Part shown: positions 8,533-18,413 of the stretch, piece by piece
How positions within the stretch are numbered: the stretch's first letter is position 1
Layout: the number at the start of each line of letters is the position of its first letter
Source of the DNA: Candidatus Saccharimonadota bacterium
GTDB taxonomy: Bacteria > Patescibacteriota > Gracilibacteria > BD1-5 > UBA6164
DNA length: 32,000 bases
Direction of reading: 5' to 3'
NCBI GenBank assembly: GCA_963677765.1
Contig: OY782392.1
Location: 660,001-692,000 of the forward strand
Position numbers and translations under genes: made by a program
Notes under the pieces: generated by a model
What the model saw: the letters and a program-made list of their open reading frames with translations, nothing else
What the model was told of the DNA's origin: nothing
Database searches by the model: none

Positions 8533-9876
8533 ATGAATGATTTAATATTTTCATGAGCTTGACTTGCTATAGGTTTAGCTTGATTGTGAATTGCTATATG
8601 ACAAGGTTTTTTGTTTTATAAGGCTATGGATGTAATAGGGAAAAACCCTAGGTCTTCAGGTTTTTTTCTTACTATAACTATTTTATGAATTGCATTAGTA
8701 GAGTCAGCAGGTATTTATGGTTTAATAATAGCTTTTCAAATACTTAGTGCTTCTTTTATTGATCCATTAACAGCTATATGAGTAGGTTCTGCAATATGAT
8801 TGGCATGATTATGAGTTGGTATATGAGAATGAATTCTTGTATGATCAGCTATAGAAGCTATGAATAGAGATACAGAAAATAGGAATAGAATTCTTACATA
8901 TATGATATTGTTTTTAGCATTAGTAGAGTCAGCTGCTATATATGGGTTAATAATAGCTTTTCAATTGTTAACAAAATTAGAACTATCTCCTTATTTGGCT
9001 ATTTGAGCATGATTATCAATTTGACTTACTTGATTATGAGTTGGTATATGAGAGTGAATATTGTCTTGAAAATCTATTTCACTTATGTCACAAAAGCCTA
9101 ATCAAAAATGATATCTTCTTACATCAACTATATTATGAATTGCCTTAGTTGAAACTGCTGCAATATATTGACTTATAATGTCTTTTTCGATTATTGAATC
9201 AGATTTAATTATTCCTATGTCGGCAATATGAGCTGGGTTGGCTGTTTGACTTGCATGATTATGAGTTTGAATAGGTGAGTGATTATTAGTTTCATGAAGT
9301 TATGAATCAATGTTAACTCATAGGGCTAATAAATCTAAGGTTCTTACATATATGATATTATTTTTAGCTTTAGTAGAATCAGCCGCAATATATGGTTTAA
9401 TCATAGGTTTGCAAATTTTATCTAATTGATCAGTAGAATGATTAGCTTCAATTTGAGCATGATTAGCAATTTGATTAGCATGATTATGAGTAGGTATTTG
9501 AGAATGATTTATGTCTTCTAAATCTATTAAAGTAATTTCTAAAAGACCATCTCTTTCAATGTTTTTTCTTACAATAACTATTCTAGCTATTGCATTAGTA
9601 GAATCAGCAGCTATATATTGACTTATAATATCAATGCAAATTTTGTCTACTAATGAAATTTTATGATTTGCTGCTGTTTGAGCATGATTAGCAATTTGAT
9701 TAGCATGATTATGAGCTTGAGTAGGTGAGTGATTTTTGACATGAGCTTCTTTTGATTCTATTGCTAGAAATCCTAAGGTTAAACAAAGAGTTTTAACATA
9801 TATGATATTATGAGTTGCATTAGTAGAATCAGCTGCAATATATGGTTTAATTATAGCATTTACAATATTGTCTTAG
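8533..9876 (+). CDS. atpE: F-type ATP synthase subunit c as a six-hairpin covalent fusion (447 aa, predicted 12 TM helices), paralog 1
   Basis: Hand translation with TGA=Gly gives one ORF with no TAA or TAG. It contains six tandem copies of G-rich helix 1 (GAGLAIGLAGLGVGIGEG), a polar loop, and helix 2 (LALVESAAIYGLIIAF). The Glu codons at 8701, 8926, 9151, 9376, 9601 and 9826 are exactly 225 nt apart. The gene is invisible in the standard code because TGA is dense. Confidence 0.9.
8533..9876 (+). repeat. Intragenic tandem repeat, 6 units of 225 bp (sub-structured as 3 x 450 bp)
   Basis: The block gcattagtaga(a/g)tcagc(a/t)gc(t/a)atatatgg(t/g)tta and its close variants recur with an exact 225-nt period. 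Odd and even units differ systematically. Confidence 0.9.
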
Positions 9877-9982
9877 CTTATTAAAAAAAGTAAAAAAAAT
9901 AAATTTGATTTTTTTTATTTTAAAAATATTATAGACATAAAAAGCTTTATTTTCTTTTCTTAAGAAATAGCTTATTATAGAG

Positions 9983-10026
9983 AAAAAAGCAAGGTAAAAA
10001 AATATTTTTTTACTTGCTTTTTTTTT
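9983..10026 (+). terminator. Terminator-like hairpin with a T9 tail between the first c6 gene and atpB
   Basis: The stem gcaaggtaaaaaaa / tttttttacttgc (one bulged G) is followed by nine Ts. It lies in a 209-bp intergenic gap, whereas other atp genes are 19-64 bp apart. Confidence 0.55.
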
Positions 10027-10085
10027 GTGTTTCAATATACTTCTCGCGTTTTATTTAATTATGTATAATTTTTTAATACAATAAT

Positions 10086-10952
10086 ATGGACACATTAAAT
10101 ACTTTTTTGTCTGCATATGTTATCTCATGATGAGATGGGCATTCCGCATGACTAAATCCTTATTTTATATGAGTTCTAATTGAGCTTGTACTATTTGGGT
10201 TAATATACTTTTTTATAACAAAAAGGCCTAACTCGTCTTTTTCTGTTATGTTTGACATGTTATATGATAAGGTTTATTCATTTTTTGAAGATATTCTTTG
10301 AACAGAAGAAAAAAGATGGACAAAACTATATATTACATCTATGTTTTTTGTAATATTAATATCAAACTTATTAGGTGTTATTTTAGAAATAGCTTGAGTA
10401 TGATTACCATTTTTACATCATGCAGTATCTATACCTACATCTGATATAAACTTTAATGTTGCTATGGCAATAGTATGAGTTTTAATTGTAATTTATGAAC
10501 AATTTAAATTCTTATGATTTTGAAAAGCTATATACGAATACTTGCCAGTTCTTGGTAAAAATTATATACCTTATGAAAAATGAAATTTAAATAAGTTTAT
10601 AGATTTTCCTTTATTCTTATTGGTTAAAGTTTTTGATATTATAATATCAATATTTTTATGATTATTAGAAATAGTAGGTCATTGAGCTAAAATTATTTCG
10701 TTATCATTTAGGTTATTTGGTAATATTACCTCAGGTTGAATGCTTCTTGCTATGTTATTGGCATGAGTAGAATTGCTTACTTGATCTATATCAGGTTTTG
10801 TAACTGGATTGTTTGGTAATTCTATAGAAGTTAACTTCCCAGTATTAATACCTATAATATTACATTTACAATGATTACTAGTAGCTTTAATACAAGCTTT
10901 AGTTTTTCCACTTTTGATAGCTATATTTATTAAGGTTGCAAAAGTGCACTAA
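10086..10952 (+). CDS. atpB: F-type ATP synthase subunit a (288 aa)
   Basis: It contains the essential-Arg motif ISLSFRLFGNITSGG and a C-terminal helix, LHLQGLLVALIQALVFPLLIAIFI. It is a multi-TM protein, and the start/stop frame is consistent. Confidence 0.93.
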
Positions 10953-10990
10953 TTTTTTAAATTTATAAGATATTTTTTAATAATATATAT

Positions 10991-16133: not shown

Positions 16134-16135
16134 TT

Positions 16136-16537
16136 ATGATATTAAATGTATATACTGACTGATGATCTAGATGAAATCCATGAAAGGCTTGATTATGAGT
16201 TTATATCACGGATAGCAAATGATTGGAAGTTGAAAAAAGGTATAAAAGTTTATGAATCAAGACAAATAATGAAGCAGAATATTTATGAGCTTATTATTGA
16301 ATAAAAAGAGCAATAGAGCTATGATGAAATGAAATTAATCTTTTTATGGATTCAAAATTAGTAATAGAACAATTATTATGAAATTGGAAAATTAAAAAAG
16401 ATGAACTTAGAGTAATAAATAATGATATTAATCAACTTGTTAAACAAAACAATACAAAAGTAAACTATACTTGGATTGCAAGAGAAAAAAATAAAGAAGC
16501 CGATAGGCTTAGTAATGTTGCAATGGATTTAGATTAA
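16136..16537 (+). CDS. rnhA: RNase H type 1 domain protein (133 aa)
   Basis: MILNVYTDGGSRGNPGKAGLGVYI...NNEAEYLGAYYGIKRAIELG...FMDSKLVIEQL...KEADRLSNVAMD carries the DEDD catalytic pattern of RNase HI. It starts 2 nt after the preceding stop. Confidence 0.85.
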
Positions 16538-16561
16538 TTTACAATTAAAATTATATACAAA

Positions 16562-17962
16562 ATGAAAACTTGAAAAATTACAAAAATCGTTTGAGTAGTA
16601 ATTGATGTTAAATTTGATAATGGTTATGTACCATCTATCTATGAAGCTTTAGAAATTACTAACTCAGAAAATAAAGTAGTTTTAGAAGTACAACAACAAT
16701 TATGAGATGGAACTGTTAGAACTATCGCCATGAATCCAGTAGATGGGTTAAAAAGAGGTTTAGAAGTTGTTGCTACTGAAAATCCTATTAGAGTACCTGT
16801 ATGAGATAAAGTATTAGGTAGAATGTTTAATGTATTAGGTGATCCTATTGATGATTTAGAAAAACCTAAAACAGAACACAATGATCCTATTCATAGACCA
16901 GCTCCAGAATTTAGTAGTTTAACTACTCAAGCTGAAGTTTTTGAAACTGGTATTAAAGTAGTTGACCTTATTGCTCCAATGCTTAAATGAGGTAAAGTAG
17001 GTTTATTTGGTTGAGCATGAGTAGGTAAAACTGTTATCATGCAAGAATTAATCCACAATATCGCTTCTGAACATGGTGGTTACTCAGTAGTTGCCGGTGT
17101 AGGTGAAAGAACAAGAGAAGGTAATGATTTATACCATGAAATGAAAGAATCAGGTGTAATAGACAAAACTGCTATGGTATTTGGACAAATGAACGAAGCT
17201 CCAGGACCAAGAGCGAGAGTTGCTTTAACTTGATTAACTATGGCTGAACACTTCAGAGATAGAGAGAAAAAAGACGTATTATTATTCGTTGATAATATAT
17301 TCAGATTTACTCAAGCATGATCAGAAATTTCTGCTTTATTAGGTAGAATTCCTTCAGCTGTATGATATCAACCTACATTAGCTACTGATATGGGTGGTTT
17401 ACAAGAAAGAATTACTTCAACTAAAGATGGTTCTATTACTTCTGTACAAGCTGTTTATGTTCCTGCTGATGATCTTACTGATCCAGCTCCAGCTGCTACA
17501 TTTGCTCACTTAGATTCTACTATAGTACTTAATAGATCAATTGCTGAATTAGGTATTTACCCAGCTGTAGATCCATTAGATTCTACTTCTACAGTATTAT
17601 CTCCAGAAGTAGTATGAGAAGATCATTATAATGTTGCAAGAAATGTACAAAAAATTCTTCAAAAATATAAAGAATTACAAGATATTATTGCTATCTTAGG
17701 TATGGATGAATTATCTGATGAAGATAAATTAACTGTAGCAAGAGCTAGAAAAATACAAAAATTCTTAAGTCAACCATTCTTTGTTGCAGAACAATTTACA
17801 GGTACTCCATGAGTATATGCAAAATTAGAGGATACAATTTCTGGTTTCAAAAAAATTATTGATTGAGAAGTTGATTATATTCCAGAAAACTTCTTCTTAT
17901 ATAAAGCTTGAATAAAAGATGTTATAGCTGCTTACGAAGCTAAACAAAAAGAAGCTAAATAA
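16562..17962 (+). CDS. atpD: F-type ATP synthase subunit beta (466 aa)
   Basis: The Walker A GGAGVGKT is encoded ggt tga gca tga gta ggt aaa act (17009-17032). Also present are [44 protein letters not shown] and the DELSDED motif. The gene joins track ORFs 17039..17233 and 17390..17617. Confidence 0.98.
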
Positions 17963-17981
17963 TTTTTTAAAAATAAATTTT

Positions 17982-18413
17982 ATGAAACTAAAAATATTTT
18001 CTTTTTCATGAGAAAGCTTTAGTTCTGACAATGTTGTTTCTGCAACTTTGATGACTTCAATTTGAGAAATTACTCTATTAGATAATCATGCTCCTTTATT
18101 AACAAGTATAAAACCATCTACTATGTATGTTATATATACTGATGATAAATGAGTTGAAAAAAGAGATGATTTCGCAATTTGAAAATGAGTTGTTGAAGTT
18201 AGTGCTAACAATGTAAAAGTTATGGCTGATATGCTTGTAGATATCGATGATCTTGATACTGAAGCTGCAGAAAGAGCTAGAGAACAAGCTGTTAAACTTA
18301 TGGAAAAATATAGAGATTCAAAAGATAAAATGGACATGGAAAAATTTGTTGAAGCTGAGGATATGTTATTAAAATCAATAGCTCAATTAAAATTAAATGA
18401 TACATTAAAATAA
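17982..18413 (+). CDS. atpC: F-type ATP synthase subunit epsilon (143 aa)
   Basis: It follows atpD. An N-terminal beta-sandwich region (GEITLLDNHAPLLTSIKP) is followed by a C-terminal helical hairpin (EAAERAREQAVKLMEKY). It is in frame with track ORF 18222..18413. Confidence 0.9.

Follow-up and report, generated by a model that had tools for sequence, protein, structure and literature searches.

The number of c hairpins in the rotor ring of an ATP synthase sets the number of ions moved per ATP and cannot normally be read from sequence, the ring self-assembling from identical monomers. What, then, does a gene for six fused hairpins encode, and how many such chains would make a ring? The question is raised by a cluster of eleven genes at 8533-18413 of a 32-kb stretch of DNA from the Gracilibacteria (the window; contig OY782392.1 of assembly GCA_963677765.1, positions 660,001 to 692,000), in which two proteins of this kind, of 45 kDa each and here called c6A and c6B, are encoded on either side of subunit a. 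In this F1Fo ATP synthase/ATPase, which belongs to a clade using genetic code 25 (UGA = Gly), the rotor would be built from covalent arrays of c hairpins, not from 8-kDa monomers.

Two six-hairpin c proteins in an F-type gene cluster

Genes were called with translation table 25 across 8533-18413, giving eleven uninterrupted plus-strand open reading frames (ORFs) with the same coordinates as in a first-pass annotation made from the letters alone. Every canonical F-type subunit is assigned by Pfam, delta weakly, in the order a-c-b-delta-alpha-gamma-beta-epsilon, with an extra c gene 5' of a and two further genes, encoding a protein X and an RNase H, between gamma and beta. The annotation had described an F-type enzyme with two six-hairpin proteolipids of 12 transmembrane helices flanking subunit a, and the table 25 ORFs and Pfam matches confirm this. 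Its statement that the eight canonical subunits are present in order holds for the subunits and their order, with the reservation that delta is truncated, at 119 amino acids (aa), and has a weak C-terminal OSCP match.

Each of c6A (8533-9876, plus strand; 447 aa) and c6B (10991-12340, plus strand; 449 aa) contains six PF00137 stretches (E 3.5e-83 and 2.4e-84, respectively), where an F-type c subunit has one hairpin in a polypeptide of ~70-90 aa. The units of c6A, A1 to A6, lie at 8548-8754, 8773-8979, 8998-9204, 9223-9429, 9448-9654 and 9673-9873; those of c6B, B1 to B6, at 11009-11215, 11234-11440, 11459-11665, 11681-11887, 11912-12118 and 12137-12337, all on the plus strand. They recur with a Glu-to-Glu period of 74-77 residues, mostly 75, and all 12 retain the ion-carrying Glu of helix 2 and the GxGxGxG of helix 1. 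The helix-1 ligand position, equivalent to residue 32 of the I. tartaricus and F. nucleatum rings, reads Q,E,E,E,E,E in c6A and Q,E,E,E,R,E in c6B, a polar ligand being present in 11 of the 12 hairpins (Gln in the first of each protein, Glu in nine). On helix 2 the six motifs of c6A are all ES/ET..Y, while those of c6B are ESA, ESA, ESA, EVT, ESA and EVV, each then followed by ..Y; Ser or Thr comes after the Glu in ten hairpins. The linkers between hairpins are short (~6-10 residues) and periplasmic, and they show no sequence conservation. Identity between the two proteins is 58%, and their odd and even hairpins fall into two sequence classes, which indicates that the evolutionary unit is the hairpin pair.

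In a sequence search of the PDB, the best match of a single window hairpin is subunit c1 of A. woodii (4BEM_J; 2e-13), with Chloroflexus c, chloroplast c and the rings of F. nucleatum (3ZK1) and I. tartaricus (1YCE) also among the top matches and V/A-type K subunits reaching merely ~1e-6. An AlphaFold2 model of P0005, a database orthologue 70% identical to c6A, was made from an 11-sequence alignment. It has 12 long helices forming six hairpins, with a mean predicted local distance difference test score (pLDDT) of 90.6 and a predicted TM-score (pTM) of 0.90. In a Foldseek search of the PDB its adjacent hairpin pairs superpose on A. woodii c1 with a root mean square deviation of 2.4 Å over 155 columns and also match double-hairpin V-type c subunits; among these matches there was no solved chain with more than about two hairpins. 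Membership of c6A in the V-type K family was raised by the top score of NCBIfam PRK14893. It was ruled out because this profile spans two hairpins, F-type c subunits are by far the better match to a hairpin taken singly, and the surrounding operon is of the F type. TIGR03322 reaches 129.8 bits by adding up all six hairpins, a score below its cut-off.

Genetic code and integrity of the arrays

Might the hexamers instead be a row of ordinary atpE genes, or a mis-assembled repeat, joined only because TGA was taken as a sense codon? With table 11 the region indeed breaks into ORF fragments of 40-140 aa, those in the c genes being of 40-60 aa, and some relatives have long exact internal repeats (599 nucleotides (nt) in L009, 443 nt in L071) in which copy number could be mis-assembled. 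However, alpha and beta contain 24 in-frame TGA codons, and in seven standard-code outgroups 134 of the 168 residues aligned with them are Gly; both TGA-encoded glycines of the beta Walker A motif correspond to Gly there. The TGA codons of the c genes, 51 in each, fall within the helix-1 GxGxGxG motif and never between hairpins, and the individual hairpins have no start codons of their own. The two frames run for 447 and 449 codons without TAA or TAG, and the chance of the former is ~7e-15 at the composition of the window (~25% G+C). The 12 units share only 54-74% DNA identity, they have no exact word longer than 39 nt in common, and no 225-nt array was detected by Tandem Repeats Finder, which together exclude duplication or collapse in assembly. 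Moreover, independent assemblies have yielded over 40 protein clusters of the 444-453-aa size class. The artefact is rejected, its probability being negligible in our estimation. No other c gene was found within the 32 kb when an HMM (hidden Markov model) of the hairpin was run on the table 25 ORFs, and ARAGORN found no tRNA genes in the window.

A natural series of hairpin numbers

Among contigs from one genome per species, the closest alpha homologues belong to metagenome-assembled genomes of Gracilibacteria (83-89% identity). With alpha as bait, 80 atp loci of 4-21 kb each were gathered, in which alpha is 60-89% identical to that of the window, and hairpins were counted by applying the HMM, built from the 12 window hairpins, to table 25 ORFs. 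The code-25 clade is sampled by 73 sources, the window and 72 fetched loci, which stand for about 70 species and to which the following figures refer. Single-hairpin c genes number 38, while 16 genes encode two hairpins, six encode four, 14 encode six, three encode seven, one encodes eight, two encode ten, six encode twelve and two encode thirteen. This survey of atp loci with table 25, which had been proposed as a check, shows fused c genes of 2-13 hairpins to exist beside c1 genes (writing cN for a gene of N hairpins). The first-pass annotation had further reasoned that ordinary single-hairpin atpE genes at the same locus of related genomes would count against its reading; multi-hairpin genes are carried by L006, the closest complete relative (6+4), and by L014 and L015 (6+6). 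The helix-2 Glu is kept in all 287 hairpins of multi-hairpin proteins in the clade, and 208 of 213 Glu-to-Glu intervals measure 73-79 residues.

These genes occur in several architectures. Some relatives have the canonical a-c1-b; in others the same place is taken by a-cN-b with N of 2, 4, 6, 8, 10 or 12, and oral Gracilibacteria (L032, L033, L039) have c7-a-b. The Fo module is duplicated, as a-c2-b-a-c1-b, in L016, L017, L019, L024 and L025 and present three times, as a-c1-b-a-c2-b-a-c1-b, in L021. The arrangement of the window, cN-a-cM-b, is found as 6+6 in the window, L014 and L015, as 6+4 in L006, 4+4 in L010, 12+2 in L001 and 13+6 in L002 and L004. Hairpin number shifts between near-identical relatives in the alpha tree, as between L013 (c8) and L009 (c12) or between the window and L006, and single-chain c12 occurs on at least four separate branches.

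The c12 genes are those at 4784-7492 of L001, 6366-9080 of L009, 1065-3764 of L043, 6311-9019 of L046, 6303-9002 of L062 and 4202-6910 of L073, and the c13 gene is that at 3858-6761 of L002/L004, which encodes 968 aa. These are single ORFs of ~900-968 aa with F-type hairpins, and from the sequences each chain is predicted to be a whole rotor ring in one bacterial polypeptide. Internal repeats are short in the c12 of L001 (20 nt) and the c13 of L002 (26 nt), which makes their copy number robust, and the 968-aa c13 was seen in about ten independent assemblies; the copy number is likewise robust in the c12 of L043, L046 and L062, with repeats of 53-65 nt, and in the c7 and c8 genes. It is less certain in L009, L071 and L073, where exact repeats span 192-599 nt (192 nt in L073).

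A protein search retrieved more than 100 clusters of fused proteolipids with lengths near 296, 447, 524, 612 and 750 aa, the 750-aa member coming from Ca. Vampirococcus lugosii. Many public translations (P0002, P0004, P0006-P0009, P0022, P0053 and others) have 40-80 Trp residues at Gly sites, code 4 having been used instead of code 25, and other database entries for these proteolipids are split or named hypothetical. The mistranslation of Gly as Trp spoils alignments and has probably hidden this family.

Ring size and chain composition

Known F-type rings contain 8-17 c subunits (PMC8809890). Six-hairpin chains can give rings of 6, 12 or 18, and only 12 lies within that range; in addition, single-chain c12 has been reached repeatedly and independently. 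A ring of 12 hairpins, made of two c6 chains and, with all sites active, passing 4 ions per ATP, is thus the most likely, and we regard it as probable. The earlier claim that any ring here contains a multiple of six hairpins is supported by the same comparison. The figure of 4 ions per ATP that went with it is consistent with a Glu in all 12 hairpins and doubtful for B5, which has Arg at the helix-1 position; were this Arg-paired site silent, the ratio would be 3.3-3.7.

Other ring sizes have some attraction. One c6 chain might close a 6-hairpin ring, giving 2 ions per ATP and a strong ATP-driven pump, or three chains might combine to 18. A low ion/ATP ratio would suit a group of the Candidate Phyla Radiation (CPR) that lacks a respiratory chain and whose enzyme has been proposed to be an ATP-driven pump (PMC8080830); the pTM of the P0005 model is compatible with a closed mini-ring, and the c7 and c8 relatives show small numbers. 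Yet no F-type ring is known below 8 or above 17 (PMC8809890), the fit of adjacent hairpins to a subunit of the 11-hairpin A. woodii ring indicates normal curvature, and the repeated independent arrival at a single chain of 12 points to a preferred size, so that we find these sizes quite improbable. Still less credible is post-translational cleavage into single hairpins or smaller units, which would restore a conventional mature ring. Nothing in the sequence forbids it, but the short linkers share no cleavage motif, the regularity of the 73-79-residue spacing looks as if each linker spans neighbouring ring helices, and the non-identical hairpins follow a conserved order (Q first, E/EV[VIL] last, E/EVT then R/ESA) that is meaningful only with covalent linkage. 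In addition, an engineered fused c10 works uncut (PMC8809890).

How would the two chains share a ring of 12? Across the clade, c6A groups with the genes preceding a, being 79% identical to that of L006, 70% to those of L014/L015, 61% to the L001 c12 and 58% to the L002 c13, with c6A-type orthologues at 70-87% identity. Conversely, c6B groups with the genes following a (62-85% identity, Vampirococcus included), while comparisons across the two groups give 52-57%. The two are therefore old, separately conserved paralogues. In the mechanism that we propose they would be under separate transcriptional control, and any ring would be formed by halves that are interchangeable or freely mixing, as (c6A)2, (c6B)2 or c6A.c6B, in preference to an obligatory 1:1 heterodimer; fusion would fix the ring at 12, along with the order of its non-identical sites, whichever chains combine. 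Each lineage appears able to serve on its own. The pre-a gene alone has 12 hairpins in L001 and 13 in L002/L004, beside a post-a c2 or c6, and a post-a c6, c4 or c2 is the sole c gene at L030, L028, L061, L020, L040 and L047 (with 6-8 kb upstream and ~10 kb downstream covered), so that homo-oligomerisation must occur there. The c6 of L030 has the pattern Q,E,E,E,R,E, the same as c6B. All told, covalent c-hairpin arrays forming a 12-hairpin rotor with interchangeable or mixing halves are our best explanation, one that we favour by a modest degree of belief.

The strongest competitor is an obligatory heteromeric rotor, in which exactly one c6A and one c6B, as non-redundant halves, close the ring of 12. 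It draws support from at least eight species that have kept both lineages next to each other (window, L006, L014, L015, L001, L002, L004, L010), three of them 6+6, from the growth of the post-a gene to 10-12 hairpins in L009 and L011, close relatives that lack a pre-a gene, as though to hold the total constant, and from a gene dosage of one c6A to one a to one c6B, which fits a 1:1:1 complex. On the other hand, one of each in L001, L002 and L004 would make 14 or 19 hairpins, the latter beyond the range of 8-17; a gene of the c6B type stands alone at L030; L006, the closest complete relative, is 6+4; and c6A is apparently transcribed apart (see below). Conservation of the per-locus total at 12 would have been proof of the heterodimer, and totals of 7, 8, 10, 12, 14 and 19 all occur. 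The first-pass annotation had preferred one copy of each closing the ring; given the c12 and c13 pre-a genes that suffice alone, the lone c6B-type loci and the terminator-like elements that bracket c6A, this is not favoured over its other suggestion of alternative rotors. We judge the heterodimer a possible but rather unlikely arrangement.

Several observations nevertheless weigh against our preferred reading of interchangeable halves in a ring of 12. Hairpin totals other than 12 occur, since c7, c8, c10 and c13 genes are robust and paired genes add up to 8, 10, 14 or 19; ring size must then vary in the clade, and 12 in the window follows from its being the multiple of six within 8-17. An obligatory heterodimer whose total is conserved would equally predict the 6+6 of three species, the window included, together with the c10-c12 of sister lineages lacking the pre-a gene. 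The totals per locus come from loci of 4-21 kb, and further c genes may lie elsewhere in the relatives' genomes. A generic scan for promoters and terminators did not rise above background (39 hits, with 33 expected) and failed to pick up the low-GC stem-loop that follows c6A, and the calls on which separate transcription depends are consensus matches and conservation in a spacer that is 85% A+T. Finally, a single cE56Q abolishes activity of the PS3 enzyme, so that a silent site may not be tolerated (PMC8809890). On balance, interchangeable or mixing rotor halves appear at least as likely as the heterodimer.

The arginine hairpin

The codon at 11966, which gives Arg at the helix-1 ligand position of B5, is truly AGA. 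Of the 287 clade hairpins, 18 have Arg here, and post-a genes as distant as those of L069 and Vampirococcus keep the succession E/EVT then R/ESA, followed by a terminal E/EV[VI]. The Arg hairpin is present in the post-a genes of L002-L006, L008, L010, L013, L030, L046, L061, L062, L069 and L071, with Gln in its place in L012, L014 and L015.

In solved Na+ rings each site is completed by residue 66 of the neighbouring subunit (PMC3692424), and both neighbours of B5 have Val there. The Arg-Glu pair in this ligand-poor pocket may be self-neutralised, making B5 a non-carrying site. Such a silent hairpin would, on this hypothesis, resemble functionally the carboxylate-free hairpin of A. woodii c1, the means being charge compensation. 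If B5 is silent, rings of (c6A)2, c6A.c6B and (c6B)2 carry 12, 11 and 10 ions per turn, respectively.

A divergent second Fo module and its ion sites

Single-hairpin c1 genes of the clade are hydrophobic at the ligand position of helix 1, 35 of the 38 having I or V there, and read EA...Y on helix 2, a proton-type pattern. The multi-hairpin proteins, by contrast, always begin with a Q/ES hairpin, continue with E/ES and mostly end with E/EV[VIL], and this pattern is that of the c2 gene in the a-c2-b module. Subunit a of the window (atpB; 10086-10952, plus strand; 288 aa; PF00119, 6.5e-28) shares 44-53% identity with the a genes that accompany c2 and 25-31% with those that accompany c1, and it contains LSFRLFGN / LSFRLFGNITSG within the PF00119 match; we take LSFRLFGN to be the RLxxN motif with the stator Arg in the penultimate helix of F-type a. 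Subunit b (12370-12843, plus strand; 157 aa; PF00430) shows the same affinity as a, being orthologous to b of the c2-paired module. The affinities of a and b and the hairpin pattern indicate that the genome kept only the divergent c2-type Fo module, whose c gene was expanded and duplicated. By these sequence comparisons, the Fo sector of the window (a, c and b) is assigned to a second, deeply diverged a-c2-b module.

Several Gracilibacteria have two or three complete a-c-b sets in tandem 5' of one F1 set (delta-alpha-gamma-beta-epsilon). In these tandem loci (L016, L017, L019, L024, L025, L021) the c1 set has I/V with EAV..Y, the other has a c2 of the Q/E-ES type, and the a subunits of the two are 25-31% identical, which suggests alternative Fo sectors, possibly for different coupling ions, serving one F1.

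The ligand set of Na+ rings is Gln/Glu32, Glu65, Ser/Thr66, Thr67 and Tyr70 (PMC2359735, PMC3692424), and in the two-carboxylate site of F. nucleatum E32, E65, S66 and Y70 are joined by Thr67, which holds the coordinating water (PMC3692424). In the window, Q/E32 is found in 11, E65 in 12, S/T66 in ten and Y70 in 12 of the 12 hairpins. Position 67 is Ala, as in 189 of the 287 clade hairpins, with Thr only in B4. The ligand set is therefore Na+-like, of the two-carboxylate kind, minus the water-holding Thr, and any ion specificity drawn from it is putative. The authors of the Vampirococcus study aligned one hairpin and took similar differences as signs of H+ coupling, the fusion going unmentioned (PMC8080830).

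Transcription around c6A

The c6A gene is bracketed by terminator-like elements. A palindrome with a 13-pair stem followed by a T run (8443..8475) separates it from a 755-aa ORF ending at 8441, and a plus-strand stem-loop followed by a T run (9983..10026; minimum free energy -18.9 kcal/mol, z -3.1) lies in the spacer before atpB. The 3' arm of the latter is overlapped by a promoter-like TTGCTT-N16-TATACT (10014..10041, plus strand) 5' of atpB, which is the sole exact match in the window, 0.07 being expected by chance. These spacer elements were found by comparing the relatives' spacers. The spacer itself, of 209 nt, is conserved in the window, L006, L014 and L015. The stem-loop is kept in these three relatives, with two pairs changed on both sides relative to L014, and the promoter-like element is in the same place in all of them; it is also present 5' of atpB in L010, where the pre-a gene is 1.8 kb away. 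We infer that c6A is probably monocistronic, with atpB-c6B-b and the genes that follow forming a separate transcription unit. The first-pass annotation had drawn a single operon; its gene order stands, while c6A is probably not co-transcribed with the rest.

The leader at 10042-10085, CGTTTTA.TT...TGTATAA.TTTTTAATACAA, is likewise conserved in the window, L006, L014 and L015. Its inverted repeat, TTGTAT...ATACAA, directly precedes the atpB ATG and is possibly a translational control element.

Remaining genes of the cluster

Downstream of b, all on the plus strand, come delta (12851-13210; 119 aa; a weak match to PF00213, OSCP), F1 alpha (13254-14759; 501 aa; PF00006/PF02874), F1 gamma (14787-15701; 304 aa; PF00231, 2.7e-75), X (15765-16133; 122 aa; without Pfam match), the RNase H (16136-16537; 133 aa; PF13456 4e-18, PF00075 2e-14), F1 beta (16562-17962; 466 aa; PF00006/PF02874) and F1 epsilon (17982-18413; 143 aa; PF02823, 6.9e-14).

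In delta, residues 63-111 match positions 117-162 of the OSCP profile with an E-value of 0.0054, below the Pfam cut-off, and NCBIfam gives no match. A full-length delta/OSCP has ~170-180 aa including the N-terminal alpha-binding domain, and the protein is of 113-127 aa in all 71 related loci. The alpha-binding domain seems to be missing or unrecognisable, and attachment of the peripheral stalk may differ accordingly.

X is a small membrane protein specific to the clade. Its N-terminal half is hydrophobic and its tail charged, and it has a P..DPIH segment that is conserved, an RKY.Y motif and, at the C terminus, an invariant KEIK. In 41 of 65 related loci X takes the place between gamma and beta. 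Searches of Pfam, NCBIfam and the PDB gave no match, a 10-sequence profile searched at E up to 1 included; X may be a subunit of the ATP synthase, or an assembly factor, peculiar to the lineage. The RNase H is at the same position, between gamma/X and beta, in 35 of the 65, which speaks for long-conserved synteny and not recent insertion.

Significance

In the window, and more clearly in the 12- and 13-hairpin relatives, the rotor number would be constrained or fixed by the gene. The natural series from 1 to 13 hairpins offers material on the evolution of ring size, site heterogeneity and ion/ATP ratio, and bears on whether F-type motors tolerate programmed 'blank' sites. The role of a membrane ATP synthase in CPR cells without a respiratory chain is an open question (PMC8080830), and it matters in this regard that the Fo comes from a distinct module with Na+-like sites and not from the proton-type module of sister lineages.

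A bolder scheme can be put forward, tentatively and with some doubt on our part. In Gracilibacteria and Absconditabacteria an exchangeable Fo (a'-c2-b') with Na+-type two-carboxylate sites would operate on the F1 that also serves the ordinary proton-type Fo. Its rotor stoichiometry would be set by the number and order of the fused hairpins and would evolve quickly as units are duplicated and lost, and in genomes like that of the window the two separately transcribed rotor genes would be switched or blended. If true, an F-type motor would here have a gear shift of natural origin, between the 12 active sites of (c6A)2 and, should the Arg-paired site be silent, the 10 of (c6B)2, or 4.0 and 3.3 ions per ATP.

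We found no published description of a multi-hairpin F-type c in Gracilibacteria, Absconditabacteria or other CPR bacteria, most subscription journals lying outside the search. The earlier claim of novelty holds to that extent and is narrowed by the two-hairpin c of A. woodii, by the engineered c10 and by natural fused c proteins outside the clade (L081, L083; see below). What is new is an F-type rotor made from six-hairpin chains (12-13 in relatives) with all carboxylates retained, in a divergent second Fo module.

Comparison with known systems

Fused proteolipids also turned up outside the code-25 clade. Two metagenomic loci from JGI data (L081 7297-15240 and L082; 3300035507, 3300043086) have a standard-code a-c-b-delta-alpha-gamma-beta-epsilon cluster with an eight-hairpin c. 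This c protein (P0098; 612 aa), from an organism of unassigned phylum, retains Glu in all eight fused hairpins. Fused F-type rotors are thus not confined to code-25 bacteria. In Desulfatitalea sp. (L083 1485-5164; GCA_013041835.1) the order is atpI-like, ORF, a, c4, c1, b, b, and the c4 protein (P0116; 324 aa) has E,Q,Q,E at its carboxylate positions, two of four being lost; its genes would make a mixed rotor resembling that of A. woodii, one member having four hairpins, and the representative search gave dozens of ~316-325-aa clusters that may be similar. Asgard archaea (Promethearchaeota, Hodarchaeota) have long multi-hairpin proteolipids, namely P0124/P0268 of 1139-1147 aa, the P0131 cluster of ~630 aa and P0133 of 1042 aa, annotated as 'V/A-type subunit K'. 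Monomeric rotors like that of M. kandleri thus seem to have a wider distribution than the classical examples show.

Among characterised enzymes, non-identical proteolipids in a fixed ring order are familiar from eukaryotic V-type ATPases, and the double hairpins of V-type rings arose by fusion with loss of one carboxylate per pair, which lowers the number of ions per ATP. The window hairpins resemble these double hairpins (NtpK of Enterococcus hirae, 2BL2, and eukaryotic c/c'/c'') in structure, with target-normalised TM-scores of 0.76-0.81, but sequence similarity is much weaker (1e-4 to 1e-6) and no carboxylate has been lost. From the N-ATPase (atpDCQRBEFAG, without delta) the cluster differs in its canonical order and its delta homologue. 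The c11 ring of F. nucleatum (3ZK1) has Glu at the helix-1 position and Glu-Ser...Tyr, as in most window hairpins, but its c is a single hairpin with Thr67, where most of the latter have Ala.

One of the closest precedents is the F/V-hybrid ring of A. woodii (c1 + c2/c3; 4BEM), likewise bacterial and F-type, with a multi-hairpin c, Na+-type ligands and a defined odd hairpin that is comparable to B5; its subunit c1 is the best match to the window hairpins in the PDB in both sequence (2e-13) and structure (2.4 Å). However, this c1 has two hairpins, one of which has lost its Glu (Gln in the second), and is mixed with single-hairpin c2/c3, whereas the window has six hairpins per chain, Glu in every one and no single-hairpin c gene. 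The engineered single-chain fused c10 of Bacillus PS3 FoF1 is active in synthesis and pumping, which shows that head-to-tail fusion through short linkers can be tolerated in an F-type ring (PMC8809890). It joins identical hairpins through Gly-Ser-Ala-Gly linkers; those of the window are diverged and in conserved order. As to sheer number, subunit K of the A-type enzyme has 13 hairpins in one polypeptide in M. kandleri and three in M. jannaschii (PMC2359735, citing Lolkema and Boekema 2003). Like these K subunits, the c proteins of the window join many hairpins covalently and keep their ion sites, whereby the gene would set the rotor stoichiometry, and the likeness extends to the 12- and 13-hairpin chains of the window's relatives. 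The archaeal protein belongs to an A1Ao enzyme, while the window combines F-type hairpins in a bacterial F-type operon with two half-ring genes; the chains of L001, L009, L043, L046, L062 and L073, with 12 hairpins, and of L002/L004, with 13, are single as in M. kandleri, but F-type.

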